Below, one piece after another: positions 4,381 through 60,331 of a stretch of DNA of 64,000 nucleotides. This DNA is from Bacteriovoracia bacterium. Its GTDB lineage: Bacteria > Bdellovibrionota > UBA1018 > CAIPTA01. The notes under the pieces were generated by a model. That model had not been told where the DNA came from. It saw only the letters and a program-made list of their open reading frames with translations, and made no database searches. Both the position numbers and the translations under genes were made by a program. The DNA is taken from positions 1,408,001 to 1,472,000 of the forward strand of contig JBFWVL010000001.1 of the NCBI GenBank assembly GCA_050246755.1, in the 5' to 3' direction. The first letter of the stretch is position 1. Each line of letters starts with the position of its first letter.

Positions 4381-5346
4381 ATGAACAAGATACCCAAAGA
4401 CCAGCCTTTAATCGTTCTCAGTATTGGGACCAAGATCCTCATGAAGGATGTGATGGACCAGTACCTGCGCAGCTTGGGCGAAGTGAAAACCTATTACGCT
4501 GCCAAAATGAGCATGGCGGTGGAAAGCTTCCGCGAAAAAAAGCCAAATATCATTTTTTGCGAGCAGGCATTTGGCGAAGGCAGCGCTCTCGAGCTGATCC
4601 GGCAAATCGGTGGCCTTCCCCAGTCGGGGGACCAGTACTTCGTGCTGGCTACTGAGCAGAGCTCAGACGAGCTCATGGCCCTTTCGGCTGAAGAAGGAAT
4701 CGACGAAATTCTGGTGAAGCCTTTTTCCACCGAAACAATTCACCAGATAGTGGAGCGCTATTTCGATAAAAAGTCGGCCGCTGATCTGGATTGGATCAAA
4801 GATTTAAGGATGGCCAGGAAATCGTTCGAAGAAAAGCGCTTTCAGGAATCCGACGAGCTCTTCGGGGCCGCGGCCCGCAAATACGCGCAAAATATCAACG
4901 TGCAGCTCGAGTGTTCCGCGCATTTTCTCGAGCGCGGAAATGCGGAGCGAGCGGAAAAGCTCGTACAGTGGGTAATAGAAACTTCAATGGAAAACCCACG
5001 CGCCCTGCAACTTGCGGGGATGGCGCTGAAAAAGCTCGGCCGTTTCCGCGAAGCGGTGGACCGGTTTCGCCGCGCCGACAAGCTGAGCCCGCTCAATAGC
5101 ATCCGTCACGCCGAGCTGGCTGAAACGTATATGCTAATGGCGGAAGAACTTGTTCAGGCGGCGCTAAAGAGCGAGAACGAGAGCTCCACCCTTATCCTTA
5201 AGAAGGCCAAGCTGCACCTAATGCGCAATGACTATGCGGGAGTGGTAACTTACCTCGATGCAAAACGCGCTTTTCTGAGTGAAGCCGGAAAAAAAGAAGC
5301 GGACGCATACACTGCATTAGCGAAAAAACTCGGTGGCTTTAAGTAG
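4381..5346 (+). CDS. Atypical receiver domain plus TPR-like protein
   Basis: REC-like N-terminus (IIFCE, ILVKPF) followed by helical TPR-like repeats. Confidence 0.75.
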   Translation: MNKIPKDQPLIVLSIGTKILMKDVMDQYLRSLGEVKTYYAAKMSMAVESFREKKPNIIFCEQAFGEGSALELIRQIGGLPQSGDQYFVLATEQSSDELMALSAEEGIDEILVKPFSTETIHQIVERYFDKKSAADLDWIKDLRMARKSFEEKRFQESDELFGAAARKYAQNINVQLECSAHFLERGNAERAEKLVQWVIETSMENPRALQLAGMALKKLGRFREAVDRFRRADKLSPLNSIRHAELAETYMLMAEELVQAALKSENESSTLILKKAKLHLMRNDYAGVVTYLDAKRAFLSEAGKKEADAYTALAKKLGGFK

Positions 5347-6157
5347 GGCTTAGTTTCAAAATCTGGCGGGCCTCGGCCGGGCTCGCCACTTCTCGCTGCA
5401 GCAAGCGGGAAAGATCGGCGATCCGCTTCACGAGCTGCGCATTGCTCTCGGCCAGCACTCCCTTGGAGAAATACAAATTATCTTCGAATCCTACGCGCAC
5501 GTGCCCGCCGCTGACGATCGCGAGCGGCGCCACCTGCAGCTGAAATCGCCCTACGCCCGCCACCGCGAAGGTGGATCCTGTGGGAAGCTTAGATTTCATG
5601 TGAAACAAATTTTCTGGCGCGCCGGAAATACCGTGCTTGGTTCCCAACACGAATTGAAAATGGGCGGGCTCGGCGATCACGCCACTCTTAACGAGGCTCA
5701 CCCCGTATTCCAGCATGCCTAGATCGTAGACTTCGATTTCCGGCTTAATATTTAATTTCTTCATCGCGGAGGCGAGGGCTTCTACGTCTTTGGGAAGATT
5801 TTCGAATACTTCGTCGCCGAAATTAATCGAGCCCACGTTTAGCGAAGCCATCTCGGGCTTAAGATTCAAGGGAGCGAGGCGTTCCGAAACGGGAGTGCCC
5901 ACGGCGCCGCCGGTGGAGTATTGCAAAATTAAATCGCAGCGATCGCGGATCAGCTTACTCACCTTGGCGAAAAGTTCCGATGATTGGCTCGGTTTTTCTT
6001 TATCATCGCGCACGTGCAGGTGCACAATCGCGGCGCCGGCCTGCCAGCAGGCGTAGGCGGCCTCGGCCTGTTCCTCGGGAGAGCAGGGCAATTTCGGGTT
6101 CATGGCTTTCGTGGTTTCCGCACCCGTGATGGCGGCGGTAATAATCAGTTTCGACAT
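5339..6157 (-). CDS. kce: 3-keto-5-aminohexanoate cleavage enzyme (BKACE/DUF849)
   Basis: IITAAITGAE, HLHVR, STGG, GHVRVGFEDN motifs; lysine-pathway context. Confidence 0.93.
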   Translation of the reverse strand: MSKLIITAAITGAETTKAMNPKLPCSPEEQAEAAYACWQAGAAIVHLHVRDDKEKPSQSSELFAKVSKLIRDRCDLILQYSTGGAVGTPVSERLAPLNLKPEMASLNVGSINFGDEVFENLPKDVEALASAMKKLNIKPEIEVYDLGMLEYGVSLVKSGVIAEPAHFQFVLGTKHGISGAPENLFHMKSKLPTGSTFAVAGVGRFQLQVAPLAIVSGGHVRVGFEDNLYFSKGVLAESNAQLVKRIADLSRLLQREVASPAEARQILKLSPT

Positions 6158-6163
6158 CACTCT

Positions 6164-6202: not shown

Positions 6203-6916
6203 CTACCGGATAATTTCGTGCACCAGGGAGTAGAGTGCCTTTGGTAAATGCTCGAGCTGGGCCACGCGCACGTATTGCCCGCGGCCCTGGCGGGCAAGGT
6301 TGCGGCAAAACCGGGTGCTTGCCCAGGGATTGCCCGTTTGCACCATATGTAGGCGCGGCAATCGCGGAACGATATGTTCTGGATTTTTCCCGGCCGTAAA
6401 CCTGCCGTCGGTCATGAGAATCACGGCTTTCTTGGGTAGTTTTCCTGAGGCGGCTTCTTTTTCGGCTTCGATCAGCCCCGCTTCGATATTGGTGAGGCCG
6501 CGTGCCGGAACCTCCATGAATTTCTCGAGAATTTGGTAGATATCCATTTTCACGCCGAGAGGCTTGATCACGGTGGCGTCGGATTCGAAAACCACGACGG
6601 CGAGATCTTCGGGATCGAGCTGCAGGGCAATCACGGCCAGCGCCACCGCATTAATTGCTAATTTTCGCCCCGTCATGGAAAGGCTGGTGTCGAGGCAGAC
6701 AATTACCTCCGCGCGACGGGGTTCTTTTCTCTCCACGATGAGATCTTGCAGCGTGGGATCTTCTTCGAGCGAAGCTTCGAGGTCGAACTCTTCCTGGGGA
6801 TGCAGGTTCCATGCGTCGTTTACCAGAGAATATGGCCTCTGCACGGCCCCCATCACGGCCAGAGCTTTGCGAACAATGGCGCGGATGGCTGCCGCGCGGA
6901 TCTTCGCGCGTTTCAC
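6203..6916 (-). CDS. von Willebrand factor A domain ORF; its frame stays open upstream to 7150 with no start codon
   Basis: MIDAS motif DTSLS, then T in LTNIE and D in LMTDG. Confidence 0.9.
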   Translation of the reverse strand: MKRAKIRAAAIRAIVRKALAVMGAVQRPYSLVNDAWNLHPQEEFDLEASLEEDPTLQDLIVERKEPRRAEVIVCLDTSLSMTGRKLAINAVALAVIALQLDPEDLAVVVFESDATVIKPLGVKMDIYQILEKFMEVPARGLTNIEAGLIEAEKEAASGKLPKKAVILMTDGRFTAGKNPEHIVPRLPRLHMVQTGNPWASTRFCRNLARQGRGQYVRVAQLEHLPKALYSLVHEIIR

Positions 6917-7083
6917 CTCGTCGAGACGTTTCTTGATTTCGTGGTAGTGGAGAGCTTTATCCCAATCGGATTGTGAAAGATTTTCTACGGCCCCATCACC
7001 TTCGTCGGAAAGAATTTCGGGGGGGAAGAATTTTATTTCCGGCTCGGTGGCATCGGAGGGAAGATCGCCGTATTCGAGCTCAA

Positions 7084-7959
7084 TTAACTTGTCCGGCTTT
7101 TTTTTTTGGCTTGTTCGGCGATTTGCTCGATGGCCTTCTGGAATCCCAGCTCAGTTCCTTCTTCGGTAAGCTCCACGCGCGTAGGCAGGGCAAGCAACGC
7201 AGCGCGAATAAAAGACTCCCATTCCCCGCCAAGACTCTGGGCGATATCGTAGATACTGATCGCCGCGCGGATACTGGCGCCGCGCTTGAAGAGCACCGAG
7301 CTTCTAGTGCCACGCACGAGTTGCACGCTCCACTCGAGAAGCTGGTTATCCGCTTTTCCTTTTTCGCGGAAGCTCGAGGCGCGCTGAAGAATACCACGTT
7401 CTTCATTTTCGCTCTGGTAGTGAAGAGAAATGAGCTCAAAGCGATCTAGCAAGGCTTCGCTGAGATGGCTTGTGGCCACGAACTCGCGGGGGTTCTGCGT
7501 GGCGATCACGGTGAAGCCTTCTTTAGCCTTCAAGGTGCCGATACGTGGAATTTCAATTTTGCGTTCATCTAGGGCGGGAAGCAGAACGTTCTGCACGCCC
7601 TCAGGCATCCGGTTAAGCTCGTTGATGAAAAGGATAGAGCCCTTGCGAAGCGCCTGCGCCAACGGGCCGTCGAAATAGGAATCCGCGCCGTAACCTTTTT
7701 TCAGCACGGTAGGAGGATCAAACCAACCGGTGAGTTTTTGTTCGGTATAACGGGAATCCCCGTCTACGCGAATCACTTCCTTGCCCAGTAGCTCCGCCAC
7801 CGCGGCCACCAAGAAGGTTTTTCCTACGCCCACGGGCCCTTCGAGCAAAACATGCTTGCCGGCGCCCACGCAGTGCACGAGGTTTTCCACTTCGCGTTCA
7901 CGGCCTACCAGACCATATTTCTCGTGAAGGGTTTTTAGGATTTGGGCGGCGGACTTCAC
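7084..7959 (-). CDS. MoxR-like AAA+ ATPase
   Basis: Walker A GPVGVGKT, Walker B-like LFINELNR, ATQNP, LSEALLDRF; GTG start at 7959 overlaps the kamE stop (GTGA). Confidence 0.92.
   Translation of the reverse strand: MKSAAQILKTLHEKYGLVGREREVENLVHCVGAGKHVLLEGPVGVGKTFLVAAVAELLGKEVIRVDGDSRYTEQKLTGWFDPPTVLKKGYGADSYFDGPLAQALRKGSILFINELNRMPEGVQNVLLPALDERKIEIPRIGTLKAKEGFTVIATQNPREFVATSHLSEALLDRFELISLHYQSENEERGILQRASSFREKGKADNQLLEWSVQLVRGTRSSVLFKRGASIRAAISIYDIAQSLGGEWESFIRAALLALPTRVELTEEGTELGFQKAIEQIAEQAKKKSRTS
7098..7107 (-). other. A10 slippery run, candidate -1 recoding site
   Basis: GCC AAA AAA AAA AGC CGG ACA AGT TAA in frame 0; the -1 frame is open into the vWA ORF. Confidence 0.65.
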
Positions 7960-8765
7960 TTCTTGGCCTTCTTTCGGCGAATCATTTCGTCTACCACGTA
8001 GCTTGCCACATGGGAGGGGAGAGTTCCAGGCCCGAAGCCGGCATCGAGGCCGCACTCGATCGCGGTGGGGTGATTGAGGCGCGGGCCTCCCGCTACGAAA
8101 ATAAATCTCTCGCGCAGCCCCTGCTTCTCGGCGAGCGCCATGAGATTTTTTAGATTATCGATGTGGCAGTCTTTTTCGTCCACGATCTGGGAAACTAGGA
8201 TCGCATCGGCATCGGTTTCTACCGCGATCTTCAGAAGATCTTCGTTCAGAACCTGCGCGCCTAGATTGCGCGCATCGAATCCTGAATAGCGCTCGAGGCC
8301 ATAGTCGCCCTTATAGCCCTTCATGTTGAAAATCGCGTCGATGCCCACGGTATGGGCGTCGAACCCAGTGGTGGCGCCGAGGATCACGATCTTGCGTTTG
8401 ATTTCCTTTTTAATGAGATCGTTAATCTCGTAGAAGCTCTTGAACTCGGTTTCCACTTTCAGCACGTGAATTTTGGTGAAATCCACGGAGTGCGTAGTGG
8501 CACCGTAGGCCACGTAAAAGCTGAATCCCTCGGAAGGCTTTTCCATCGCCACCACTTTGATGTCTTGGAATCCCATCTTACGCATAAACTCCCGCGCGGC
8601 CTCCTCGGCCTCGGGGGAGGGGTTGAGCGGCAGGGTGAAAGAAACCTGCATGCGCCCATCGTTCATGGCGTCGCCGTAAGGTTTAATATTTTTCAGGTCC
8701 ACCATCTTTACGGAGGGATGGTCGGGAGCGCCATATGGAAGAAATTGGGTTTCTTTCTTATCCAT
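7956..8765 (-). CDS. kamE: Lysine 5,6-aminomutase beta subunit (B12-binding)
   Basis: KPYGDAMNDGRMQVSFTLP dimerisation domain, DAHTVG B12 motif, NMKGY PLP lysine; ATG at 8765 overlaps the kamD end. Confidence 0.95.
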   Translation of the reverse strand: MDKKETQFLPYGAPDHPSVKMVDLKNIKPYGDAMNDGRMQVSFTLPLNPSPEAEEAAREFMRKMGFQDIKVVAMEKPSEGFSFYVAYGATTHSVDFTKIHVLKVETEFKSFYEINDLIKKEIKRKIVILGATTGFDAHTVGIDAIFNMKGYKGDYGLERYSGFDARNLGAQVLNEDLLKIAVETDADAILVSQIVDEKDCHIDNLKNLMALAEKQGLRERFIFVAGGPRLNHPTAIECGLDAGFGPGTLPSHVASYVVDEMIRRKKAKK

Positions 8766-10350
8766 AATCTTTAGCCTCCAAGCGATCGAGCATGGGGTTG
8801 ATATACCCATCTTCACGGTTGAAAACCCCTTTATAGCCCTTGCCGCCATCGATCTTACGGCTTACTTCGGCGAAGCACTTTTGCTCGATCGCCTTGAAGA
8901 TCCCGATTTTATCGATGTGGCGCAAGAGTTTCACGGAATCGTCGAGAACTTTCTGGGCCCACTTCTCGATCTTCCCGCCCTTTTTGTAAATGATCTCTTC
9001 GCCGAGGTGCTCGGCGCCGCCGAAAATATAGTTGCAGCTCTTGAGCGCCATGAAACGATCTCCGAGCAAGGGCGTATGGATAGCTTCGGTGGGCATGCCA
9101 AGCAGGTGGATTCCCTGATTCGTCATCACGCTCACGAGATTGAACATCGCGTCGTACACGTGGCTGAAATGAATATCGCCCTCCATGTGGCGGGTGGGGG
9201 GCATATACTTCAGGGGGGCCTTGGGGAAAATATCGCGGGTCATTTGCGCGCGCGCCACCTCGAGGAGAATCACGTCGGGATGAAATGGATTCATCTCCAT
9301 CGCGTGGCCGAGGCCCATATACTCGGGCTTCATATTGGCCGATAGCGCAAAGCGCTCGTTGATGAACTGGGAGGCAAGAACCTGGTGGCCGTTTTCCACG
9401 GCGTCGGCGGTGGTGAGGTAGTTGTCTTCGCCGGTATTGATGAAAATTTCCGATAGCGCGCATACCAGCCGCGAAAAATGCTGGTCGATCAGAGTGCGCT
9501 TCATGTTGATGTCGCGAAAAAGAATCCCATAGAGTGAATCGCACAATAAAAAATCTAGGCGTTCCTGCGCGGCGATCGAAGCGATTTCCGGCATGCAGAG
9601 GCCCGAAGAATAGTTCGTGAGGCGGATATAACGGCCGAGCTTCAGGCCCTCTTCATCGAGCGCCTTGCGCATGATGCGAAAGTTTTCCTGCGTGGCGTAG
9701 GTGCCGCCAAAGCCTTCCGTGGTTGCGCCATGAGGAACGTAGTCGAGCAAAGATTGCGCGGTGGAGCGGATCACGGCAATTACATCGGCCCCGGCCTGCG
9801 CGGCGGAGCGCGCTTGCACCACATCTTCGAAAATATTGCCCGAAGCTACGATCACGTACTTGAGCGGCGGCTTCCTGAAAGAAACATCATGCGGATCGAT
9901 CAGCTTGCTTTTGAGGCGGTTCCGCTCTTTACGCTTGTCGACCAGCGCCTTGAGCGCCACTTTGGCGAGCGCGTCGGCTTTTTTGAAGATGTCTTTTTCT
10001 TTCGCTACCGGGATTTTGGATAACCGGAATGCACCGTTGGCGCGAATGAGGGTGTCTACCACCTGGGCGGGCGTGGCATTTTGCTGAACGCAGGCATTGG
10101 CCATCCAGAAGGATGCCCCCCGCCCAATGGCGCCGTCTTCTTGCAGCTGATCCACGATCACGTTCGCGATCGGATAATGTTGTTTGATCTGGGGATTGAA
10201 GTAGGCACCGCTTACGCCGAGCAGCCGCAATACGGAACGCTCTGTGGCCACGGTAGAATGCGCGTCGATCACTTCCCGAACGTCTTTGGAAATTTTTACC
10301 GCGATTCGGCGGCAGTCAGCAATTTTTTTTCGGTCAAGGGCGAGCTTCAT
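8758..10350 (-). CDS. kamD: Lysine 5,6-aminomutase alpha subunit
   Basis: VIRSTAQSLLDYVP, GFGGTYATQENFR, NYSSGLCMPEI, KYMPPT. Confidence 0.96.
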   Translation of the reverse strand: MKLALDRKKIADCRRIAVKISKDVREVIDAHSTVATERSVLRLLGVSGAYFNPQIKQHYPIANVIVDQLQEDGAIGRGASFWMANACVQQNATPAQVVDTLIRANGAFRLSKIPVAKEKDIFKKADALAKVALKALVDKRKERNRLKSKLIDPHDVSFRKPPLKYVIVASGNIFEDVVQARSAAQAGADVIAVIRSTAQSLLDYVPHGATTEGFGGTYATQENFRIMRKALDEEGLKLGRYIRLTNYSSGLCMPEIASIAAQERLDFLLCDSLYGILFRDINMKRTLIDQHFSRLVCALSEIFINTGEDNYLTTADAVENGHQVLASQFINERFALSANMKPEYMGLGHAMEMNPFHPDVILLEVARAQMTRDIFPKAPLKYMPPTRHMEGDIHFSHVYDAMFNLVSVMTNQGIHLLGMPTEAIHTPLLGDRFMALKSCNYIFGGAEHLGEEIIYKKGGKIEKWAQKVLDDSVKLLRHIDKIGIFKAIEQKCFAEVSRKIDGGKGYKGVFNREDGYINPMLDRLEAKDYG

Positions 10351-11395
10351 AGAGGGATTGTAAGATTGTACGCAGCTCGCCGCTCTCCCGCAAGATGTCG
10401 AGCGTCAGGGCGGCATGTCCCTCGGTATACCCATTTCCGATCACTAACGTTACGTCGGCCCCCACGCCTTCGGCGCCAAGGGCCGCGGCGGAGAAGCTCG
10501 TGGCCATACTGAACAGGTACACGGTGCCTTTATGGCGGGTGGAAAGAATGCTGGCCATTTCGGTGCCGGCCACGTTGGCCACGTTGATCACCAGATCGGC
10601 GCCTTGGCCGCCAAAAGCCGCGCGAATTTTCACTGAAGCCTCTACGGCGTCCCGCGCGTTGCCCTCGATCACTTCGTCCACGAAGGAAAGCTGGCGCAGA
10701 CGCTCTGCGGCCACGGGAGAGTACTCGAAGGCCACTACTTTGCCGGATTTACCGGCCTGCTTTTTTGCTTCGTATAGGCAGAATAAGCCGCTTTTTCCGC
10801 CGCCGCCGATCACGGCCACGTTCATGCCGGGTTTCACGAGCTGCGCGGTTTGGGCGGGGGCGCCTGCCACGTCGAGCGCCGCGAGGGCTAGTCCTTCGTT
10901 GATATCGGCCGGAATCTTGGCGGCGATTCCGCTATTGAACAAAATGGCGTGTCCCTCCACTTCCACTCGTTCGATCTCGGGCAGAACTTTTTTAATGCGC
11001 GTGATTTTGAGGGGGGTGAGGGTAAGGGAAACGAGCGTGGCGATTCGGTCTCCCGCTTTAAAATTTTTGAAGTCGGGATTGGTGATATTGGCGCCCACTT
11101 GCTTTACGGTGCCGATCAGCATCCCTCCCGATCCCGTTACAGGATTTTGCAGCTTGCCGCGATTGCGGATCACTTCGAGAATAGCGGCGCCGGTGCGTTC
11201 GGCGTCTTTGTCGTTGGCGCCGTAGAATTGGTGAAAACTGGCGGAATCCACATTGAGGGAAGAAACCTCGATCAAGATCTCTTCCGCGCTGGCCGGGAGC
11301 TCGGCATCGAGGCGCTGGGCCTGTTGCGGAAGAACGCCCTTGGGTTCGAGCACGCGATGGATTCCTAAGTGAAGCTTAGGATCAAGCGCGGGCAC
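10334..11395 (-). CDS. kdd: L-erythro-3,5-diaminohexanoate dehydrogenase
   Basis: GIHRVLEPKGVLPQ, GKLQNPVTGSGGM, ATLVSLTLTPL, LDVAGAPAQ, AALGAEGVG; GTG at 11395 follows AGGAGG. Confidence 0.94.
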   Translation of the reverse strand: MPALDPKLHLGIHRVLEPKGVLPQQAQRLDAELPASAEEILIEVSSLNVDSASFHQFYGANDKDAERTGAAILEVIRNRGKLQNPVTGSGGMLIGTVKQVGANITNPDFKNFKAGDRIATLVSLTLTPLKITRIKKVLPEIERVEVEGHAILFNSGIAAKIPADINEGLALAALDVAGAPAQTAQLVKPGMNVAVIGGGGKSGLFCLYEAKKQAGKSGKVVAFEYSPVAAERLRQLSFVDEVIEGNARDAVEASVKIRAAFGGQGADLVINVANVAGTEMASILSTRHKGTVYLFSMATSFSAAALGAEGVGADVTLVIGNGYTEGHAALTLDILRESGELRTILQSLYEARP

Positions 11396-12434
11396 GCTCC
11401 GCCTCCTGCACCCGCTCTTCGGCCATGCGGTTTGCCACGGTATTGGTAGGCAGTTTTTCTTGCTGCGAGCGCGCGATAATGTTTTTGATCGTGTCGTAGA
11501 TTTTGGCCACGTGAGCGTAGGCACGGTCGCGGTTATAGCCTTCGCGCTCGTGGTAAATATTGATCAGGCCGCCCGCATTAATGGCGTAGTCGGGGGCGTA
11601 GATAATTCCCTTTTTCAAAAGCTCTTCCCCGTCTTTTTCGGTGGCCAACTGATTGTTCGCGGCCCCCGCCACCACTTTGCATTTCAGGCGCGGCATGGTT
11701 TGGTTATTGATGATCGCTCCGAGGGCGCCGGGGCTGAAAATATCGCAAGCCACGTCGTAGACGGCCTCCGGGTTCACCACTTCGATATTGAATTCCTTGC
11801 GCGCGCGTTCCACGCTCTCGGGATTGATATCGCAGCCGGTAACTTTGGCGCCTTCCTGGTGGAGGTATTTTAAGAGGTAGTAATTTACGGCCCCTAGGCC
11901 CTGCAGGGTAATGTGCAGGCCCTTGAGGGATTTTTCCCCGAAGGCTTTTTCTGCGCAGGCGAGCATGCCGTTATATACACCCCACGCCGTTACGGGGGAT
12001 GGGTCTCCGCTGGAATTAGTTTCGCCGGCGATGCCGAGAATATGGGAAGTCTTGCTCTTGATCGTTTTCAGGTCACTAGAATCGATCCCGACGTCTTTGG
12101 CGGTGATGTAGTTACCTTTGAGGGTTTCCACGAAATCGCCAAAACGCCGCAGGAGCTCGGGAGTTTTTTGCGAAACGTCACCGATGATGATGCTTTTCCC
12201 GCCCCCCAGGGGAAGGTTTGAAATCGAGGCTTTGTACGTCATGCCCTTGGAGAGGCGCAAAACATCGGTGATGGCTTCGTCTTCATTGCGGTAATTCCAC
12301 ATACGGCAGCCACCAGTGGCCGGGCCTAAAGCAGTATTGTGGAGGGCGATAATGGCCTTTAGGCCCACTTTAGAGTCGTTGCAGAACACGATTTGTTCGT
12401 AATTATCTGCCTTAATTTTCTCAAAAACGCTCAT
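11382..12434 (-). CDS. Glu/Leu/Phe/Val dehydrogenase (leucine dehydrogenase-like)
   Basis: GPATGGCR, GMTYK, GGGKS, GDPSPVTAWGV, GAANNQL, PDYAINAGG. Confidence 0.93.
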   Translation of the reverse strand: MSVFEKIKADNYEQIVFCNDSKVGLKAIIALHNTALGPATGGCRMWNYRNEDEAITDVLRLSKGMTYKASISNLPLGGGKSIIIGDVSQKTPELLRRFGDFVETLKGNYITAKDVGIDSSDLKTIKSKTSHILGIAGETNSSGDPSPVTAWGVYNGMLACAEKAFGEKSLKGLHITLQGLGAVNYYLLKYLHQEGAKVTGCDINPESVERARKEFNIEVVNPEAVYDVACDIFSPGALGAIINNQTMPRLKCKVVAGAANNQLATEKDGEELLKKGIIYAPDYAINAGGLINIYHEREGYNRDRAYAHVAKIYDTIKNIIARSQQEKLPTNTVANRMAEERVQEAERARA

Positions 12435-26977: not shown

Positions 26978-27822
26978 CGATAGCCGACATTTTAAAATCT
27001 ACCCCGAAGCGCAAGCGGAACGAAGCTTTGTGGCTGCTTGAATTTATCCTGAAAAAAAATAGATCCGAGCTTTTGCTGGATGCCGAGCGATCCCTTACGC
27101 CAGGTGAGCGGATAAAGTGGTCGGTGGCTTCGCTGGCCCGCAAGACGGGAAAGCCCCTGCAGTATATCGTGGGCAGCGCTCCGTTCTGGGGCAGGGAGTT
27201 TCGCGTGGGGAAGGGGGTTCTCATTCCCCGGCCCGAAACCGAAATGCTCGTGGAGCTAGCGTTAAATTTATTTTCGAAAGAGGAGGCCGTTAGCGCGCTG
27301 GATATCGGAACTGGTTCGGGTGCGGTCGCGATCACGCTGAAACTCGAGCGACCGGGGTGGAAAATAACCGGAACCGATATTTCGGCTAAGGCCCTAAAAT
27401 TTGCGAAAGAGAATGCCAAGGTATTGGCAGCGAACGTGGAGCTGGCGCGTGCCGATCTTTTTTCGCCCAAGCTGCGAAAAAAAAATTGGTCGCTGGTGAT
27501 CTCCAATCCTCCTTACCTCGATACGCGTAAGGATAAAATTGCTGCCGAAGTAAGGGATTGGGAGCCGCGCTCTGCGCTCGAGCCCGCCCTCAAAGAGAAA
27601 TCAAAAGAAGTGAAAGAGCGGGCCGCCTGGTGCGCGGAAAAAATCCTGCGCGGCTGCGCGGCCGCTAAGCCAAGGTATACGGCGCTCGAGCTCAGTGCGC
27701 GCGTGGCGAAATTGCTCGAAACCCGCTGGCGCACACATGAATCGGTGGCGCGCATTTGGCGTGAGGCCGACCTCGCTGGTAAGAAGCGGTTTTTATTGGT
27801 AGCTTGGAAGCAAGATGCATAA
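26974..27822 (+). CDS. prmC: Release factor glutamine methyltransferase
   Basis: VLIPRPETE, DIGTGSG, NPPY, DLAGKKR; overlaps prfA. Confidence 0.93.
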   Translation: MTIADILKSTPKRKRNEALWLLEFILKKNRSELLLDAERSLTPGERIKWSVASLARKTGKPLQYIVGSAPFWGREFRVGKGVLIPRPETEMLVELALNLFSKEEAVSALDIGTGSGAVAITLKLERPGWKITGTDISAKALKFAKENAKVLAANVELARADLFSPKLRKKNWSLVISNPPYLDTRKDKIAAEVRDWEPRSALEPALKEKSKEVKERAAWCAEKILRGCAAAKPRYTALELSARVAKLLETRWRTHESVARIWREADLAGKKRFLLVAWKQDA

Positions 27823-31375: not shown

Positions 31376-31729
31376 AATTAAGTTCCCAGTTTCTGTCGTC
31401 CCTTTTTTTGGAACTGCTTCCAGAGAAGCAGTTAAATTATGCCCTATTTTACGAGGGTGTTTACGTTCGATTTTCTAAATCCTTCGCTGATTTATTGCGG
31501 TTCAATCTTTCCTGATTTGCCGCTCCAATGATTTGATTTGTGACGTTGCAAGATGGGTTCGATAAAAATCGCGTCGAATTTTCATTCTCTAATATCCGAC
31601 CATACCTTTTTTTATTCTCTTCTATTCTCGTCAGCTCAAAAATAGCCCAGCGCCAAGCCCATTATCCGACAAAAACAATCCGTATTTATACACGCTCTTC
31701 GAAAAAAAAACATTTTCCTACAAAACTAC

Positions 31730-31756: not shown

Positions 31757-31920
31757 GTTCATTGCAGCCACCACAGCGGTTGCACAACTACAGGCCGAGT
31801 TTTCGAAGGGCGTGGGGCCCGGAAAAAATAGAGCGGTAGTTGGACGATGGTTCGCAAGGTAGCGAGTCTTCGAGAGTTGCCACAGGACGGTATAGGCAAT
31901 TATTTGAGGAGCTACTATTT

Positions 31921-32751
31921 ATGGGTCTACGTATTGCAACCAACACCACTTCGATGAACGCTCAAAGAAATTTGGGCATCTCCAACGACAGACAAGCTAA
32001 CACGTTAAACAAACTTTCTAGCGGCGCGCGCATCACCAAAGCCGGTGACGACGCAGCTGGACTCGCGATTTCCGAAAAGTTGAAGGGCAGCATCCGCTCC
32101 ATGCAACAAGCGAATCGCAACGCCAACGATGGTATCTCGCTCATCCAAACGGCTGAGGGTGGTATCAACGAAGTATCTAACATTCTTCTTCGTCTTCGCG
32201 AACTCAGCGTACAAGCTGCTTCCGACACCGTAGGCGATGCAGAACGTAGCTTCACCAACAAAGAATTCCAAGCGCTCAAGGGCGAAGTAGATCGTATCGC
32301 TCAAGTGACGAAATTCAACGGACGCAGCCTGCTTAACGGCAGCGGCGAAACCCTGGATTTCCAAGTTGGTATCGAGAACAGCCCCGAGAACGATCGTCTT
32401 CAGTACGCTACGGCGACCACGGACATCACTCTTGGTAAGCTCGGCCTCTCCGATACCGGCACCATGACCAAGCAAGCCGCCCAAGAGAACCTCTCGAAGA
32501 TCGATAGCGCCATCATGGGCGTGAACGAAAATCGCGCTGGTCTCGGCGCTCTCCAGAACCGCTTGTCTTCGACGGTAAGCAACCTCGGTATCGCTACCGA
32601 GAACTTGGCCGCCGCTAACTCGCGAATCCGCGACGCTGATATGGCTCAAGAGACTTCCGAGTTGACCAAGGCTTCGATTCTCTCGCAAGCTGGTACTGCA
32701 GTGTTGTCGCAAGCCAACTCTAGCCAGAACCTTGCTCTGAAATTGCTCTAA
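31921..32751 (+). CDS. fliC: Flagellin (276 aa, little or no variable domain)
   Basis: MGLRIATN, DDAAGLAIS, GALQNRL, SRIRDAD; GAGGAG before ATG 31921. Confidence 0.97.
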   Translation: MGLRIATNTTSMNAQRNLGISNDRQANTLNKLSSGARITKAGDDAAGLAISEKLKGSIRSMQQANRNANDGISLIQTAEGGINEVSNILLRLRELSVQAASDTVGDAERSFTNKEFQALKGEVDRIAQVTKFNGRSLLNGSGETLDFQVGIENSPENDRLQYATATTDITLGKLGLSDTGTMTKQAAQENLSKIDSAIMGVNENRAGLGALQNRLSSTVSNLGIATENLAAANSRIRDADMAQETSELTKASILSQAGTAVLSQANSSQNLALKLL

Positions 32752-32966: not shown

Positions 32967-33794
32967 ATGGGCTTAAGAATCGCAACTAACGTACCTTCTC
33001 TGGCTACCCAGAGAAACATCACGGCAACCTCTGAAGAAGCTAGCAAGTCATTTGCTCGCTTGTCCTCGGGCCAACGTATCACCAAAGCCGGCGACGACGC
33101 TGCCGGTCTCTCGATTTCCAATAAATTGGAAGCTAGCGTTCGCGGCATGAAAATGGCGCAACGTAACGCAAACGACGGTATCTCCTTCGTGCAAACCGCG
33201 GAAGGTGGCATCAACGAAGTATCCAACATCTTGATCCGCTTGCGTGAATTGAGCGTACAAGCTGCTTCCGACACCGTAGGGGACCAAGAGCGCGGCTTCT
33301 TGAACAAAGAAGTACAAAGCTTGAAGGGCGAAGTAGACCGTATCGCTAAATCCACGAACTACAACGGCACTAACCTGCTCGCGGGCGAAGGCAAAGAGTT
33401 GACGTTCCAAGTGGGAGCCGAAGCTGGTGAAATGAACCGCATCGCTTTCGATCCTTCGAAGACCAACGTTTCCGCCGCCGCTCTCGGCGTGGGCAGCGTA
33501 GATCTTTCTTCGAAAGACGGCGCCCTCTCCGCTCTCGGTGATCTCGACGGAGCCATCAACAAAGTGAACGAAAACCGTTCCGAACTTGGTGCTCTTCAAA
33601 ACCGCCTGCACTCCAGCTCGAACAGCTTGGGAATCGCGGTAGAGAACTTGTCCGACGCTAAATCGCGTATCTCTGATACCGACATCGCGGCCGAGACTTC
33701 GACCATGATCAAAAACCAGATCCTCCAGAACGCTGGTATCTCGGTTCTTGCTCAGGCGAACGCTGCTCCTAACGGCGCACTGAAACTTCTCTAA
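32967..33794 (+). CDS. fliC: Flagellin (275 aa), paralog
   Basis: Same conserved N- and C-terminal flagellin motifs; SD AAGGAG. Confidence 0.97.
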   Translation: MGLRIATNVPSLATQRNITATSEEASKSFARLSSGQRITKAGDDAAGLSISNKLEASVRGMKMAQRNANDGISFVQTAEGGINEVSNILIRLRELSVQAASDTVGDQERGFLNKEVQSLKGEVDRIAKSTNYNGTNLLAGEGKELTFQVGAEAGEMNRIAFDPSKTNVSAAALGVGSVDLSSKDGALSALGDLDGAINKVNENRSELGALQNRLHSSSNSLGIAVENLSDAKSRISDTDIAAETSTMIKNQILQNAGISVLAQANAAPNGALKLL

Positions 33795-43396: not shown

Positions 43397-44680
43397 ATGC
43401 TCACCTATAAAGAGAAATTAAAGCAGTTTTCGGAGCGCCTTATTGAGGCCCAGAAGCAAGTTAGGCTTCTGGAAGCCGTGCGTTGGGACCCAAAAATCCT
43501 CGAAGAAGTGCGTAAAAACAAATACAAAGAGCTTCCCAAAGTGGACCGCTCCACCTACGAAAATATCCCCCTTGGCTACGACCCCGACCTCAAGATCGCG
43601 GAGCTCCAAGGCATTGCCAACGACCTCGTGAACGATATCGGCCCGGAAGATTCCCTGGTGCGGATCCTGCTCGCCACCTGCCAGGAATTTCAGGACGTTC
43701 TGCGCATGCTCCAGGTAAGGGGGCGGCCCGAATTTTACGAGTATTCCAAAAAGCTCTACGGCTCGCCCCAGGATCATTTTTTCGGATCCTTGATCAGCGT
43801 GAAGGATCTCGGCCTTCACCTTTATAATATTTTGTCGGGCGTGCAAGACAGCCCGGCGGCCGACGAACGGATGCAGCAGGTGGACGCCCAGCACGCGCTC
43901 AAAGATCTCGACGAGCGCTTCGGCAAATATTTTCCCGGGCAAAACGTGAAGGTGACTATCGAGGACGCGATGGTGGCCGACGCAGCCGCGAGCGCCAAAA
44001 CAATTAAGCTCCGCGAAGCCGCCACTTTTACTAAGCGTGATATCGATATTCTCGAAGTACACGAAGGCTGGGTGCACATGGGCACTACGATCAACGGCCT
44101 CGAGCAGCGCGTGGCCAAGTGGCTGCATAAAGGCTCCCCCCGCGTGACCGCCACCCAGGAGGGCCTCGCGGTATTGATGGAAATTTTTTCCTTCGTTACG
44201 TTTCCTCGTCGCGCACGCAAGATCAACGATCGCGTGCTGGCGATCGCCAAGGCGGAAGAAGGCGCGGACTTTCTCGATGTGGTGGAATATTTTCGTACCG
44301 AAGGCTACGAGGAAGACGATTGCCTAATCGCGGCGCAGAGAGTTTTTCGCGGCGGCGACGTGAAGGGTCGTTACCCTTTCACCAAAGACATCTCCTATTG
44401 CAAAGGTTTCGTGGAAAACTATAACTTCATCCGGGCTTGCATTCAGGCCGGCCGAAGCGAAATCGTCCCCTTTCTCTTCGTGGGTAAAGTGCATGTCTCC
44501 GACGTTCCCGTGCTCTACCAGAAATACCGCGAAGGAATCGTGGATCCGCCCAAATTCCTCCCCCCGTTCTTTAAGGACCTCAATTCCCTGATCGTATGGA
44601 TGAGTTTCTCCAACTTTTTGAGTGCCGCCGGCATGACCAGCGCTCAGGATGCCTATCGCAACCTGATTCAGAAGATCTAA
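43397..44680 (+). CDS. QEGLA-motif protein (DUF1704, gluzincin-like)
   Basis: HEGWVH, TQEGLA, RVFRGG, FTKDISY. Confidence 0.9.
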   Translation: MLTYKEKLKQFSERLIEAQKQVRLLEAVRWDPKILEEVRKNKYKELPKVDRSTYENIPLGYDPDLKIAELQGIANDLVNDIGPEDSLVRILLATCQEFQDVLRMLQVRGRPEFYEYSKKLYGSPQDHFFGSLISVKDLGLHLYNILSGVQDSPAADERMQQVDAQHALKDLDERFGKYFPGQNVKVTIEDAMVADAAASAKTIKLREAATFTKRDIDILEVHEGWVHMGTTINGLEQRVAKWLHKGSPRVTATQEGLAVLMEIFSFVTFPRRARKINDRVLAIAKAEEGADFLDVVEYFRTEGYEEDDCLIAAQRVFRGGDVKGRYPFTKDISYCKGFVENYNFIRACIQAGRSEIVPFLFVGKVHVSDVPVLYQKYREGIVDPPKFLPPFFKDLNSLIVWMSFSNFLSAAGMTSAQDAYRNLIQKI

Positions 44681-47183: not shown

Positions 47184-47762
47184 CTAGGCTTTTTTACCCA
47201 TGGCTACCAGGTACATTTCCACGCTCGCTTGGCGGGTGCTGTCCGGCTTGAAGGGCTTGAACGTGGTGAAGCGGGCTTCGATTTGTTTGCGCACGCTATG
47301 CGCATCTTCGCCTTCAAATAATTTCACCACGAGATTGCCACCCACCTTGAGGTGCTTCTCGGCCACCGCGAGGGCATGCAGGCAAAGCTCGGCGGAGCGG
47401 GCCTGATCGCGGATCTTCACGCCGGAAGTTTTCGGCGCCATATCGCTGAGCACTACGTCGAAGGGGCCTTCCGGCATATGCTCGGGCTCGAGCTTGAAGG
47501 CATCGCCGTGGATGAAGCGAAACTGCGGGTGCTTGAGCTCCACTTTTTCCAGGTCTACCCCGAGCACGAGGCCACGGGGGCCAACCATCGGCAGAGCCAC
47601 TTGCACCCAGGCGCCGGGGGCGCATCCAAGATCGAGCACCTTGGCGCCGGACTTTATGAGCTTAAATTTTTTTTGGATTTCTTGGAGCTTATAAGCCGAG
47701 CGCGCGAGGTAGCCCTCTTCCTTTGCTTTGCGGTGATAGAAATCTTTTTTTTCATACGCCAT
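47184..47762 (-). CDS. rlmE: 23S rRNA Um2552 methyltransferase
   Basis: RSAYKL, LDLGCAPGAW, SDMAP, KPDSTR, E-x-Y. Confidence 0.96.
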   Translation of the reverse strand: MAYEKKDFYHRKAKEEGYLARSAYKLQEIQKKFKLIKSGAKVLDLGCAPGAWVQVALPMVGPRGLVLGVDLEKVELKHPQFRFIHGDAFKLEPEHMPEGPFDVVLSDMAPKTSGVKIRDQARSAELCLHALAVAEKHLKVGGNLVVKLFEGEDAHSVRKQIEARFTTFKPFKPDSTRQASVEMYLVAMGKKA

Positions 47763-50172
47763 AAAATTCCACCACCGTGCAGCCCTCGCCGCCCTCCTGG
47801 AGGGTGCCGGGCCGGTATTTCAGCTCGTATTTAGTCTTTTTTAGGAAATCCCGCACGGCTTTTTTCAGGGCCCCGCTGCCGTGGCCATGCACGATACGCA
47901 CGAAGGCCTTCCCGCTGCGGCTGGCCCGGTCGATATAGGTGGCCACTTGGTCCATGGCTTCGTCTACAGTACGGCCGATGAGGTTTAATTCAGTTGGCAG
48001 AGAGAAATCTTCGGTGGGCCGTTGGCGGTTCGCCGTTCGCGGTGAAGAAGGAGCGCGGGATTCGGCGCGGGGCTCGATTTGGTCCCACTTCACTTTCATG
48101 CGCAGGTTTCCGACCATCACCTCGGCCTGCTTTTCTTTCAGCGCCGGATCCGAAAGCAAAACGCCTTCGGTGCGCATCGTGAGCAGGCGCACAGGCCCGT
48201 TCTTGCGGAAGCTCACGGCCTCTTCCTCGTGCTCGATCGGAATGGTTTTGGGCGGGGGCTGGGCGGGGGCCACTTCGTCCACCATCTGGTGCACCGCCTC
48301 GAAGCTCTCCTTCAGCTTTTCGGTTTCGGCTCTGGCCGCCACGGCGGCTTCCTGCTTCTCCTGCACCGAGGGAAGGCGTTTTTTATAGGCGGTGATGGTG
48401 CGGTCCACTTCGGCCATGGCACTGCGTTCGGCCTCTTTCACGAGTTCGAGGGCTTCGTCGCGGAACCGTTTCTTATAGGCCGCGAGATCGCTATTGAGTT
48501 TGGCGTAGCGGGCCTGCTCCTCCTCGAGATTTTTTTTCACCGCCTCGAGCTCCAGCTTGGCGGCAGCGAGCTCTCGCTCTTGGCCTTCCAGTTTGTCTAC
48601 GGCGCTCTGCTCGGCCACTTTTTCTTCCGAGAGAAAGGAGCGGGCCTGATTCACCAAGCCGGAAGATAATCCTAACTTCAGGCCGATCTCCAGCGCGCGG
48701 CTGGATCCTGGCACGCCCATGCGCAGGCGGTAGGTGGGAGAAAGCTTCTCGGGATCGAATTCCATCGAGGCGCTCTCGAAGGCGCTTTCACCCGAGGCTT
48801 TCAATCCGTTGAGGTGAGTGGTCACGATCGCGTAGGCTCCGCGGGATTGCAATTCGGAAAGAATGGCCCGAGACAGCGCGGTGGCTTCGTCGGGATCGGT
48901 GGCGTGGAGGATCTCATCGATGAGCACGAGGGTGCCGCGCTCTACGCTCTCGAGAATCTCTTTGAGGTGGAGGATGCTGCCCGAAAAGCTCGAGAGGCTG
49001 AGTTCGAGGTTTTGGGAATCGCCGATCTGCGCGAGCACCTTGCTCAAAAAGGGAAGCTTAGATTCGCCGGCGCAGGGTAGAAAAAATCCCGCCCGCGCCA
49101 TGAGTGAAGAGAGGCCCACGGCTTTCAGCAGTACGGTTTTTCCGCCCGTATTGGGGCCGGAGATCACGAGCACGCGGCGTTCGGGGCCGAGCACGAAGCC
49201 ATTGCGAATGATTTTTTCGGGGGCGAGCACGAATCCCAGGAGGGGGTGGTAGAGCCCGTCGAGGAAGAATCTATCCGAGAACTCGGGGCGAGAAACGCCC
49301 TTGATGGTTTCGTATTTGCGCGCGAAGCTGGCGCGCGCGAGGCAAAGATCGATCTCCACGGAGGTCTCATACGCGTGGGCGAACTCGGCGGCGTGGGGGA
49401 AAAGCTTGGCCGAGAGCTCAGCGAGGATGCGATACACTTCCTCTTCGATCTGGAGCTGGGTTTGTTTGATTTTATCGTTCGCGTCGCGCACGGCGGCCGG
49501 CTCCATGAACACGGTGGCCCGCGTGGCCGAGCTTTCCACTACGAATCCCGAAACTTTATTGCGGAATTCGGATTTCACGGGGATGAGGTAGCGCCCGTCG
49601 CGCACGTCGTAGAATTTTTCCTGGAGGAAGCCGTCGCGGAAGGCTTGCTGCAGTACCGCTTCGACGCGTTCCCGCGCTTCGGAATGCAGGCGCCGCTCCT
49701 GATCGCGCAGGCTGCGCAGGGCGGGGCTCGCGGAATCTTTTACTTGCCCGTGGTCATCGATCGCGCGCACCAGGGCTTCGGTGAGGGGGGCGAGGGGAGG
49801 AAGCGAAAGAGCGCGGGCGTGGAGGCCGGCGCAGGCCAATACCCCTTCTTTGCCACCGAGGATGGCCTGGAGTTCCTGGGAAATCCTCGCAAGTTTGGAA
49901 AGATGAAGGAGCTCTTTTCCATCCAGTACCGAAGAGCGTTCCAGGCGCTCCAGCACGGGCTCCAGGGAATCCAAAGTGGAGAGGAATACGAAATTTCCCA
50001 GCTCCAAAGCGCGCAGGCCCTGATCCGTGAGCTCTAGGAGCGCTTCCGCTTCGTGGCGATTTTCGCTCGGCGCTATCTCGAGCGCGGCAAGCTTCGCTGG
50101 TGCGCTCAGGCAATGAACGCTATAATGCCGGAGCAGTGATTGCCATTCCAGCGATGGAAGATCCGAATTCAT
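47752..50172 (-). CDS. mutS2: MutS2 ATPase with C-terminal Smr domain
   Basis: GPNTGGKT, LSSFSG, LIDE, TTH, PGSSRALEI, VHGHGSGAL. Confidence 0.95.
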   Translation of the reverse strand: MNSDLPSLEWQSLLRHYSVHCLSAPAKLAALEIAPSENRHEAEALLELTDQGLRALELGNFVFLSTLDSLEPVLERLERSSVLDGKELLHLSKLARISQELQAILGGKEGVLACAGLHARALSLPPLAPLTEALVRAIDDHGQVKDSASPALRSLRDQERRLHSEARERVEAVLQQAFRDGFLQEKFYDVRDGRYLIPVKSEFRNKVSGFVVESSATRATVFMEPAAVRDANDKIKQTQLQIEEEVYRILAELSAKLFPHAAEFAHAYETSVEIDLCLARASFARKYETIKGVSRPEFSDRFFLDGLYHPLLGFVLAPEKIIRNGFVLGPERRVLVISGPNTGGKTVLLKAVGLSSLMARAGFFLPCAGESKLPFLSKVLAQIGDSQNLELSLSSFSGSILHLKEILESVERGTLVLIDEILHATDPDEATALSRAILSELQSRGAYAIVTTHLNGLKASGESAFESASMEFDPEKLSPTYRLRMGVPGSSRALEIGLKLGLSSGLVNQARSFLSEEKVAEQSAVDKLEGQERELAAAKLELEAVKKNLEEEQARYAKLNSDLAAYKKRFRDEALELVKEAERSAMAEVDRTITAYKKRLPSVQEKQEAAVAARAETEKLKESFEAVHQMVDEVAPAQPPPKTIPIEHEEEAVSFRKNGPVRLLTMRTEGVLLSDPALKEKQAEVMVGNLRMKVKWDQIEPRAESRAPSSPRTANRQRPTEDFSLPTELNLIGRTVDEAMDQVATYIDRASRSGKAFVRIVHGHGSGALKKAVRDFLKKTKYELKYRPGTLQEGGEGCTVVEFYGV

Positions 50173-50196
50173 GGGGGCAATCTACCAGATAGGCAT

Positions 50197-59392: not shown

Positions 59393-60331
59393 TTAGCGGA
59401 ATAGTTCGGCGGCAGCGGAGAAGGGATCTAATTTCCGCCGGGAAACTTTGGCGAGCAGTTCCTGCCCACGCGCGCCCGTGAGTAGTTTCTGCGCGGTGAG
59501 TGCGGCCTGATCCCGTACCACGTGCAAAATAGAGGTACGTGCGAAGTGGACGCGCTTTTTGTCGAGCCCGCCCGACTTTTCGAGGAAATCGTGGTGCTTC
59601 TGGATCGTGGCGAATACCTCGTGCACACCTTCGTTCTTCTCGGCGGAGGTTTTCAAAACCGGGATCGTCCACTCCACGTGTCCGGCAAGCTCGAGCATGG
59701 CCGAAAGCTCGCGTACCACGTGATCGGAACCTTGCCGGTCGCACTTGTTCACGATCAGGATATCGGCGATCTCGAGGATCCCGGCCTTCATCATTTGGAT
59801 ATCGTCGCCGCTCTCGGGTACGAGCACCACGAGGATGGAGTGCGCCACTTCGAGGATGCCGAGCTCGGTCTGGCCCACGCCCGCGGTCTCGAGGATCACG
59901 AGATCGTAGCCGGCGGCGTCGAGGAGCATCACCACTTCCTGGGTATTGCGGGAGAGGCCGCCCTGGCCGCCGCGGGTGCCGATGCTGCGGATGAAAACGT
60001 CGTCGTCGGCGCTATGCTCTTGCATGCGGATGCGGTCGCCGAGGATGGCACCACCAGAAAATGGTGAGGATGGATCCACGCATACCACGCCAACCTTTAG
60101 TCCCTTTGCCCGCGCGAGGCGGATGAGCTTGTCGGTGAGGGTGGACTTGCCGGCGCCGGGAGGGCCGGTGATGCCGATGAGGTGGGCCTTGCCGGTATGA
60201 GGATAGACGCGCGCGAGGGCTTCTTCCACTTGGGGCAGGCGATTCTCCACGAGGGTGATGAGGCGAGCGAGGGCGCGTTTGTCTCCCTGCACGAGGCGAT
60301 CGGCGAGATCTTTCATCCGGGTTGAACTCAT
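59393..60331 (-). CDS. meaB: MeaB/ArgK family GTPase (B12-mutase chaperone)
   Basis: GPPGAGKST, DPSSPFSGGAILGDRIRM, ETAGVGQTE, NKCD. Confidence 0.94.
   Translation of the reverse strand: MSSTRMKDLADRLVQGDKRALARLITLVENRLPQVEEALARVYPHTGKAHLIGITGPPGAGKSTLTDKLIRLARAKGLKVGVVCVDPSSPFSGGAILGDRIRMQEHSADDDVFIRSIGTRGGQGGLSRNTQEVVMLLDAAGYDLVILETAGVGQTELGILEVAHSILVVLVPESGDDIQMMKAGILEIADILIVNKCDRQGSDHVVRELSAMLELAGHVEWTIPVLKTSAEKNEGVHEVFATIQKHHDFLEKSGGLDKKRVHFARTSILHVVRDQAALTAQKLLTGARGQELLAKVSRRKLDPFSAAAELFR

Follow-up and report, generated by a model that had tools for sequence, protein, structure and literature searches.

A recoded AAA+/vWA gene in the lysine-degradation operon of a Bacteriovoracia bacterium: a candidate ATP-driven helper of lysine 5,6-aminomutase

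What is an AAA+ ATPase with a von Willebrand factor A (vWA) partner doing in an operon for lysine degradation? The question is raised by a 64,000-nucleotide stretch from a Bacteriovoracia bacterium (contig JBFWVL010000001.1; hereafter the window, whose numbering applies to all coordinates given without a locus name), where an AAA+/vWA module lies directly downstream of kamD and kamE, the genes for lysine 5,6-aminomutase, an enzyme that depends on coenzyme B12 and pyridoxal 5'-phosphate (PLP). Coenzyme-B12 radical enzymes inactivate themselves and require dedicated ATP-driven helpers, of which two classes exist, one of the DdrAB/EutA type and one of the G-protein or KamB/KamC (KamBC) type. We posit that the module is one recoded gene, and that its predicted products make up an ATPase/adaptor machine which acts on the KamDE aminomutase in this lineage; to this reading, taken as a whole, we give a probability of roughly 0.5.

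The genes concerned all lie on the minus strand, in an operon of seven open reading frames (ORFs) which profile scans of the window assign, in order, to an ELFV-family dehydrogenase, kdd, kamD, kamE, the AAA+ ATPase, the vWA protein and kce. The alpha subunit of the aminomutase is encoded by kamD (8758-10350, minus strand; NF052384 743 bits, cut-off 600; PF09043 1e-221) and its B12-binding beta subunit by kamE (7956-8765, minus strand; NF052385 346 bits, cut-off 280). The stop of kamD overlaps the start of kamE by 8 nt, ATGGATAA, and the kamE stop shares a GTGA with the GTG start of the AAA+ gene, an overlap of 4 nt; both overlaps had been pointed out in the first-pass annotation of this DNA, and both are confirmed here. 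Judged by the latter, the AAA+ gene is translationally coupled to kamE in a lysine-degradation operon.

Where does the AAA+ gene end? The first-pass annotation had taken the AAA+ and vWA frames for a pair of separate genes, a view that needs correcting. The 0-frame product of the AAA+ gene (P0001; 7084-7959, minus strand, GTG start; PF07728 AAA_5 4e-25) is 291 aa long and ends in ..AEQAKKKSRTS*, 11 nt past a run of ten adenines (7098-7107, minus strand; T10 on the plus strand), the candidate site at which the ribosome shifts to -1 or RNA polymerase slips. The frame of vWA lies at -1 to that of the AAA+ gene and is open from before this A10 run; its first ATG, GTG or TTG appears only at 6916, 181 nt past the A10, and the intervening 61 codons encode conserved protein, which carries the motifs FxPPE and WDxAxxYHE. 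AAA+ and vWA are a single recoded gene with two predicted products. Decoding in the 0 frame would stop just after the run and yield the 291-aa MoxR-type (AAA_5) ATPase, and a -1 slip, whether by the ribosome or by a polymerase that adds one A, would join ATPase residues 1-287 to the 298 residues of the -1 frame in a fusion of ~585 aa. This -1 segment (6203-7099, minus strand, 298 codons) comprises an acidic linker and the vWA region, which ends at 6203 (VWA_2 3e-10).

The arrangement is deeply conserved: a run followed by a -1 frame is found in 12/12 loci (our own and those of 11 relatives), in 6/6 loci that belong to a different class of this phylum, and likewise in genome G188 of family f20. 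Across 45 tabulated loci, a run of A8-A11 stands at the same place in every one (A10 in 26, A9 in 16, A8 in two and A11 in one), and a -1 shift is needed in 43, a +1 shift in one and none in one, where the two frames are fused. The locus that needs +1 (L028) has an A8 run, which is possibly a homopolymer error. The in-frame fusion is a 658-aa ORF (L137:2746-4722) with A8 at the junction, and is a second copy in its genome, G250, which carries a kamDE-linked recoded copy besides. As for the window itself, contigs of two sequencing runs are identical to the stretch across A10, though these may be its source data, and a third run, from a diverged strain, shows 15 substitutions in 376 nt and no gap across A10. 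Since independent contigs show no indel, the A10 run is not an assembly slip.

By which route might the frame be changed? Runs start in all three codon phases, and the 0 frame always contains A_AAA_AAA or A_AAA_AAG; runs of A9-A10 look as compatible with transcriptional slippage as with ribosomal frameshifting. No common downstream stem was apparent in single-sequence folds of the 60 nt after the run, whose energies varied with the locus from -1.2 to -27.6 kcal/mol. Passages of PMC3711429 (Antonov et al. 2013) and PMC9227772 report -1 frameshifting in chlD-type 'magnesium chelatase' genes, measured at 10-63%, and describe A runs longer than seven as known sites of transcriptional realignment. 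Homopolymers of at least nine nucleotides number three in all in the 64-kb window. An A9 run at 31702-31710 falls in the intergenic spacer that precedes a tandem pair of flagellin genes (31840-32751 and 32967-33794), and an A9 run at 27477-27485 lies inside a PrmC-like methyltransferase gene.

How tightly is this gene tied to the aminomutase? Among 41 class-level relatives, KamD occurs in 22 and a close AAA+ homologue (E<=1e-69) in 36, the next matches being at 5e-19 or weaker. All 20 kamD loci that were fetched (G003, already represented by L005, is left out of this count) have kdd-kamD-kamE-AAA-vWA in one order on one strand, although in L044 a 3.4-kb insert separates kamD from kamE, and in L051 one of 2.8 kb separates kamE from the AAA+ gene. 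An AAA+ start codon shares 4 nt with the end of kamE in 17/29 loci, and an overlap of 1-11 nt between such a start and the kamE stop is seen in 23/29, in two classes. A sample of the phylum, comprising 301 genomes each at least 90% complete (AAA+ orthologues at E<=1e-40, co-occurrence counted by hand), holds KamD in 76 and the AAA+ orthologue in 97: with KamD, the orthologue is present in 72 genomes and absent from four, and without KamD it is present in 25 and absent from 200. The two genes share contig and strand in 70 of the 72 genomes that have both, the AAA+ gene lying up to ~5 kb downstream of kamD, and are on different contigs in G268 and G087. The synteny expected in the first-pass annotation is thus borne out.

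The four KamD genomes without the orthologue all belong to family f20, and carry KamB-like and KamC-like genes between kdd and kamD. Two of the four loci were tested, and gave 114 and 105 bits for KamB and 149 and 128 bits for KamC, scores which are under the NCBIfam cut-offs, yet these are the best and sole families matched. G188, of the same family, has kamDE-AAA-vWA and nothing KamBC-like. This division extends beyond the phylum: a KamD alignment scan of 185,579 species genomes left 80 loci, six of them of Bdellovibrionota type and with AAA/vWA (L055 ends inside the AAA+ gene and L056 inside vWA), and among the remaining 74, from Bacillota, Bacteroidales, Thermotogota, Asgard archaea, Myxococcales and others, not one has AAA/vWA and 66 carry KamB and/or KamC, usually in the order kdd-kamA-kamB-kamC-kamD-kamE. 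In a FastTree phylogeny of 109 KamD sequences, a single clade holds 32/32 AAA-linked KamD, with a Shimodaira-Hasegawa-like support of 0.999. Across kamD loci the module and KamBC are mutually exclusive, and the KamDE clade of this operon is distinct and never occurs with KamB/KamC, so that the anti-correlation which the first-pass annotation had anticipated is there; the four KamD genomes of the phylum that lack the AAA+ orthologue, with their KamBC-like genes, conform to it. In seven loci (L081, L097, L112 and L127, labelled Asgard or 'uncultured archaeon', together with L072, L078 and L130), KamB stands beside kamD and no KamC-like gene was detected in the locus.

Could KamB and KamC be encoded elsewhere in the source genome (3.55 Mb, 95.7% complete)? 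The NCBIfam models NF052386 and NF052383 are named lysine 5,6-aminomutase reactivase subunit KamB and reactivase ATPase KamC. KamB has no match in this genome, with which tblastn using real KamB and KamC proteins agrees, and KamC has two matches below its cut-off, in open frames of 809 and 900 aa that are of MutS type (MutS and MutS2); the one within the window is MutS2, because it has MutS_V and Smr domains. The absence of a KamB match is meaningful, as the same search picks up both true and divergent KamB: Caloramator KamB, the positive control, scored 416 bits and divergent KamB-like proteins 105-114 bits. In the NCBIfam scan neither model matches the AAA+ protein or the vWA protein, and KamB is found in 0/41 class-level relatives. 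The first-pass statement that the cluster has no kamB- or kamC-like gene holds for the genome as assembled. A KamA-like gene ~430 kb from the operon is 55% identical to clostridial KamA, which places the pathway's first enzyme in the genome. The MutS2 gene (MutS_V + Smr) and a divergent NFACT/RqcH-like gene occupy 47752-50172 and 50140-51648.

What kind of machine might the gene encode? AAA_5 (PF07728) matches the ATPase with 88.9 bits (cut-off 22) over profile positions 1-139 of 139, making this a single AAA+ module. Its Walker A motif, GPVGVGKT (7816-7839, minus strand), has five of eight residues conserved at >=90% in 46 homologues, the other three being the majority residue at 60-90%. The Walker B region reads ILFINE (7618-7635, minus strand), with Asn for the usual Asp and the catalytic Glu retained, and the NELNR of this region is kept at >=90% in the 46 homologues. 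So are DRF and RGASxRA, which, going by MoxR proteins, we take to be arginine-finger-like and sensor-2-like motifs. The best solved sequence relatives of the ATPase are the AAA modules of midasin (167.6 bits, 3.5e-48), followed by NorQ (3e-12 and 1e-11).

The vWA part carries a metal-ion-dependent adhesion site (MIDAS): a DxSxS motif, D137-T-S-L-S141 of the -1 segment (6677-6691, minus strand), is completed by T203 and D231. The five MIDAS residues (D137, S139, S141, T203 and D231) are invariant in 52/52 copies, 23 of which are not linked to kamDE. Structure prediction for the -1 segment, with an alignment of 15 rows as input, gave a model that has a mean predicted local distance difference test (pLDDT) score of 80.6, with residues 1-41 mostly below 50; beyond residue 41 it predicts two long helices, then a vWA fold. 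The best fold match of this model is the vWA domain of NorD, in NorQ-NorD complexes, with the MIDAS domains of MDN1 and Rea1 at ranks 8 and 12, in a list where the E-values of all vWA matches are close together. A profile search with the vWA segment against PDB sequences gave generic vWA domains only.

Residue 154 of KamE (8304-8306) is Asp in 31/32 AAA-linked enzymes and His in 51/64 KamBC-linked ones, and ~11 other positions in KamD, such as Q323, R367 and V360, are specific to the clade. The acidic residue 154 could be a MIDAS ligand, a suggestion that we offer as a lead only. A complex prediction of KamD, KamE and vWA residues 100-298, run with custom alignments, scored 0.00 in two runs, which weighs neither way on binding.

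How might such a machine work? By analogy with NorQ/NorD, ChlI/ChlD and midasin, short and long products could assemble into mixed hexamers, giving an ATPase ring with a few tethered MIDAS adaptors. In this lineage the MIDAS domain would bind KamDE, and ATP-driven remodelling would open the enzyme for cofactor exchange or loading, an act that would correspond to the job given to KamBC elsewhere by annotation. Indeed, there is something on record for such a helper to do: according to passages of PMC3958899, KamDE produced recombinantly is subject to suicide inactivation that depends on substrate, and the native lysine 5,6-aminomutase was isolated with an ATP-dependent E2 component of ~80 kDa. 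We consider the odds that KamDE is a client of the module to be even. That its act is the release of damaged cobalamin specifically, as had been proposed in the first-pass annotation, seems to us doubtful. Helping KamDE would be a plausible role for the module, though not an exclusive one.

A number of observations weigh against a machine dedicated to KamDE, one of which is that the module persists without the enzyme. The 25 genomes that have the AAA+ orthologue and no kamD make up about a quarter of the 97 with the orthologue, and are spread over at least nine taxonomic families. Twenty-two kamD-less or second-copy loci were fetched (L016-L031 and L138-L143), and nine of these (L017, L020, L023, L024, L026, L029, L138, L139 and L140) keep the flanks of the kamDE cluster, an Aldedh gene on one side and/or a CCG/Fe-S protein gene on the other; the ELFV-family dehydrogenase gene directly abuts the AAA+ gene in L016, L023, L139 and L140. 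Closest to home, G004, a genome of the same genus, is without kdd, kamD, kamE and kce and retains the ELFV-family dehydrogenase, AAA+ and vWA genes; its module has the TPR and CHASE2 neighbours on either side that it has in the window, and its AAA+ is the sister of that of G003 (support 99/95). The A run, the AAA+ motifs and the MIDAS are all intact in copies without kamDE, and therefore the module has a function independent of KamDE. Since it persists where kamDE is missing, it is older or broader than KamDE, with at least one other client.

What might that client be? In family f5, seven loci have the module after a permease of cationic-amino-acid type, often followed by a DUF455 protein, and these copies form a clade with a support of 100/98; the arrangement is possibly a second client context. 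Four f5 loci (L018, L019, L021 and L022) have the permease, AAA+ and vWA genes followed by one for a 650-710-aa protein with an N-terminal DUF455. The permease-linked copies may nevertheless be a paralogue, because the second copy of G017, a genome with both types, is their sister. No neighbour protein was found to be common to all contexts, and the 500-690-aa unknowns beside the module are not homologous to one another. The AAA+ tree behind these placements is poorly resolved, 17 of 35 inner branches being open, and is used here for strongly supported points only. A role as a general B12 factor was considered and rejected: B12-binding domains occur in 40/41 relatives, including 4/5 genomes without the module, whose distribution therefore does not follow the use of B12 in general.

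Further points against a KamDE machine concern the ATPase and the comparison with KamBC. The competence of the ATPase is an assumption, because all of the family has Asn where Walker B normally has Asp. Four kamDE genomes from Myxococcales/'Deltaproteobacteria' (G042-G045) have neither KamB nor the AAA+ orthologue, which means that a dedicated helper is not obligatory. The anti-correlation with KamBC amounts to about one evolutionary event, because the AAA-linked KamD form one clade. Finally, the 'reactivase' role of KamB/KamC is itself a database name only, and we found no paper describing these proteins experimentally among open-access papers and bioRxiv. The module had been put forward in the first-pass annotation as a dedicated, non-orthologous replacement for KamBC; of this, the linkage to KamDE and the mutual exclusion with KamBC stand, whereas the single KamD clade, the 25 kamD-less genomes with the module and the four kamDE genomes with neither helper speak against it. 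Among Myxococcales-type kamDE loci, L111, L114, L094 and L126 have neither KamBC nor the AAA/vWA module; in L111, KamD and KamE appear to be fused in one 810-aa ORF (L111:9955-12387), preceded by a gene for a 3HB-oligomer hydrolase.

How else could the locus be read? Perhaps the module is a general MoxR-vWA chaperone with another client, an old gene inherited vertically in the phylum, with the kdd-kamDE cassette upstream of it by history or regulation. This is a possibility to be taken seriously, if a tentative one: the AAA+ tree tracks taxonomy and not gene context, the copies linked to kamDE do not group in a single clade, Aldedh and CCG flanks are seen both with and without kamDE, and the retention of the module in kamD-less genomes, the invariant MIDAS of copies not linked to kamDE and the conserved permease-AAA-vWA(-DUF455) arrangement of one family all point the same way. 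Yet the overlap of the kamE stop with the AAA+ start in 23/29 loci of two classes is more than chance adjacency would give, and the tight kamD/AAA+ synteny of 70/72 genomes and the exact complementarity with KamBC-like genes within the phylum are equally hard to attribute to a bystander; moreover, none of the neighbouring genes is conserved in every context as another client would be expected to be, and the permease-linked copies may be paralogous. A different possibility is that the module does help KamDE, but is no reactivase releasing cobalamin: it might load adenosylcobalamin (AdoCbl) or PLP, activate the enzyme allosterically at the expense of ATP, in the manner of E2 or OraS, or form a cage like that of RavA and LdcI. 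RavA binds lysine decarboxylase, and NorQ/NorD, the closest solved pair, is known as a cofactor-insertion system and not as a repair factor. All the linkage evidence for a KamDE machine applies equally to a helper of this kind, and an ATP-dependent activation of the native aminomutase by a separate component is what the passages of PMC3958899 put on record. We nonetheless think it rather unlikely, since a module that stands in for KamBC by position would more naturally share the role of KamBC, whichever that is.

The two remaining alternatives bear on the gene itself and on its family. Might AAA+ and vWA be two ordinary genes, vWA having its own downstream or non-canonical start and the A run encoding no more than a conserved lysine tail, or might a homopolymer error have split a fused gene? 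In many relatives the vWA frame does offer an ATG, GTG or TTG at a distance of 2-100 nt past the run, metagenome-assembled genomes (MAGs) are error-prone at homopolymers, and one locus has an A8 that needs +1. But the positions of these candidate starts are not conserved among relatives, and in the window the first start comes after conserved linker residues; A9 or A10 is found in 42/45 loci though the proteins are only ~50-60% identical, the -1 relation recurs through many independent assemblies, and the contigs of three runs are free of indels, all of which makes this explanation improbable. As for a chelatase motor of the ChlI/ChlD type, for instance a cobalt chelatase for B12 supply, the two-product architecture with a -1 frameshift is that of fs-chlD genes, and the NCBIfam models for cobaltochelatase and BchD match weakly, albeit far under their cut-offs. 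The lack of a CobN/ChlH in the genome comes close to excluding such a role: PF02514 has 0 matches in the source genome, in a search whose control found matches in 5/14 genomes. Besides, the best Pfam family of the ATPase is AAA_5, Mg_chelatase (PF01078) reaching 27.6 bits over residues 53-91 only with no stretch passing alone, and the sequence and fold relatives are midasin, NorQ and NorD.

The comparison with these relatives shows what a recoded KamDE machine would share with known systems, and where it would depart from them. Like NorQ/NorD (PDB 9qh4-9qhg), the module combines an AAA_5-type ATPase with a vWA partner bearing a MIDAS, and the match to the NorD vWA extends over 269 alignment columns with the N-terminal helices included. 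Unlike that pair, its vWA segment being only 16-19% identical in sequence to NorD, it has a B12/PLP aminomutase as operon partner, its Walker B reads N-E, and one recoded gene also gives a covalent fusion, as predicted from sequence. No nor gene is present among the window ORFs scanned. With midasin (Rea1/Mdn1) the module shares AAA_5 modules, an acidic linker and a C-terminal MIDAS in one polypeptide; midasin, however, is one eukaryotic chain of ~4,700-4,900 residues with six AAA modules, devoted to ribosome assembly, whereas the module is bacterial, has one AAA per chain and is presumably hexameric.

In fs-chlD genes, as passages of PMC3711429 and PMC9227772 describe them, a short AAA+ and a long AAA+-linker-vWA protein arise through a -1 shift at an A-rich site, a likeness that exists here at the level of sequence only, and both systems have natural in-frame fused relatives. 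The present gene differs in that it encodes AAA_5 and not Mg_chelatase, that its genome has no large chelatase subunit, that its partner is kamDE, and that no conserved downstream hairpin was seen in the single-sequence folds. KamB/KamC and the module are each encoded beside kamDE and both include a P-loop ATPase; they are not homologous, KamBC lie upstream of kamD and the module downstream of kamE, and the module also occurs without kamDE, unlike KamBC in the loci examined.

The rest of the operon fits a pathway of lysine degradation. Its first gene encodes the ELFV-family amino-acid dehydrogenase (11382-12434, minus strand; PF02812 + PF00208), which scores under the ScyB cut-off and is found upstream of kdd in many related loci, though not in all. 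The L-erythro-3,5-diaminohexanoate dehydrogenase gene, kdd, is listed at 10334-11524 (minus strand; NF052381 245 bits, cut-off 200); the NF052381 match starts at residue 54 of the listed ORF, and the real start is probably later than the listed one. The last gene, kce (5339-6160, minus strand), encodes the 3-keto-5-aminohexanoate cleavage enzyme (NF052387 382.3 bits, cut-off 382; PF05853 4e-104). Elsewhere in the window, a gene for a MeaB-type G-protein chaperone (59393-60331; PF03308, 5e-91) adjoins a cytidylyltransferase-like gene; a different B12 mutase is therefore provided with a classical chaperone of its own in this genome. At 43397-44680 lies a bacterial homologue of the MATCAP family (PF08014, 7e-120).

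What, then, would such a machine mean? We found no paper linking an aminomutase with a MoxR-vWA pair, among open-access papers and bioRxiv, and all that is known of the helper of lysine 5,6-aminomutase is a biochemical fraction of long ago (E2) and a name in databases (KamB/KamC). Given the copies without KamDE, synteny by itself is not a safe ground for calling the module a 'KamDE reactivase', and the vWA genes of this family are probably mis-annotated with wrong internal starts across the phylum. If the module does act on KamDE, the client range of MoxR-vWA pairs would extend to B12 enzymes, and two unrelated systems could be compared on one enzyme. Were recoding to work as proposed, the frequency of slippage would determine in what proportion plain subunits and subunits with an adaptor enter the ring. 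Going further, and speculatively, a midasin-like AAA+/MIDAS machine made from one slippage gene might represent a third, unrelated class of ATP-driven helper for B12 radical enzymes, in which slippage sets the number of adaptors per ring, and which would serve other clients in relatives that have no KamDE.

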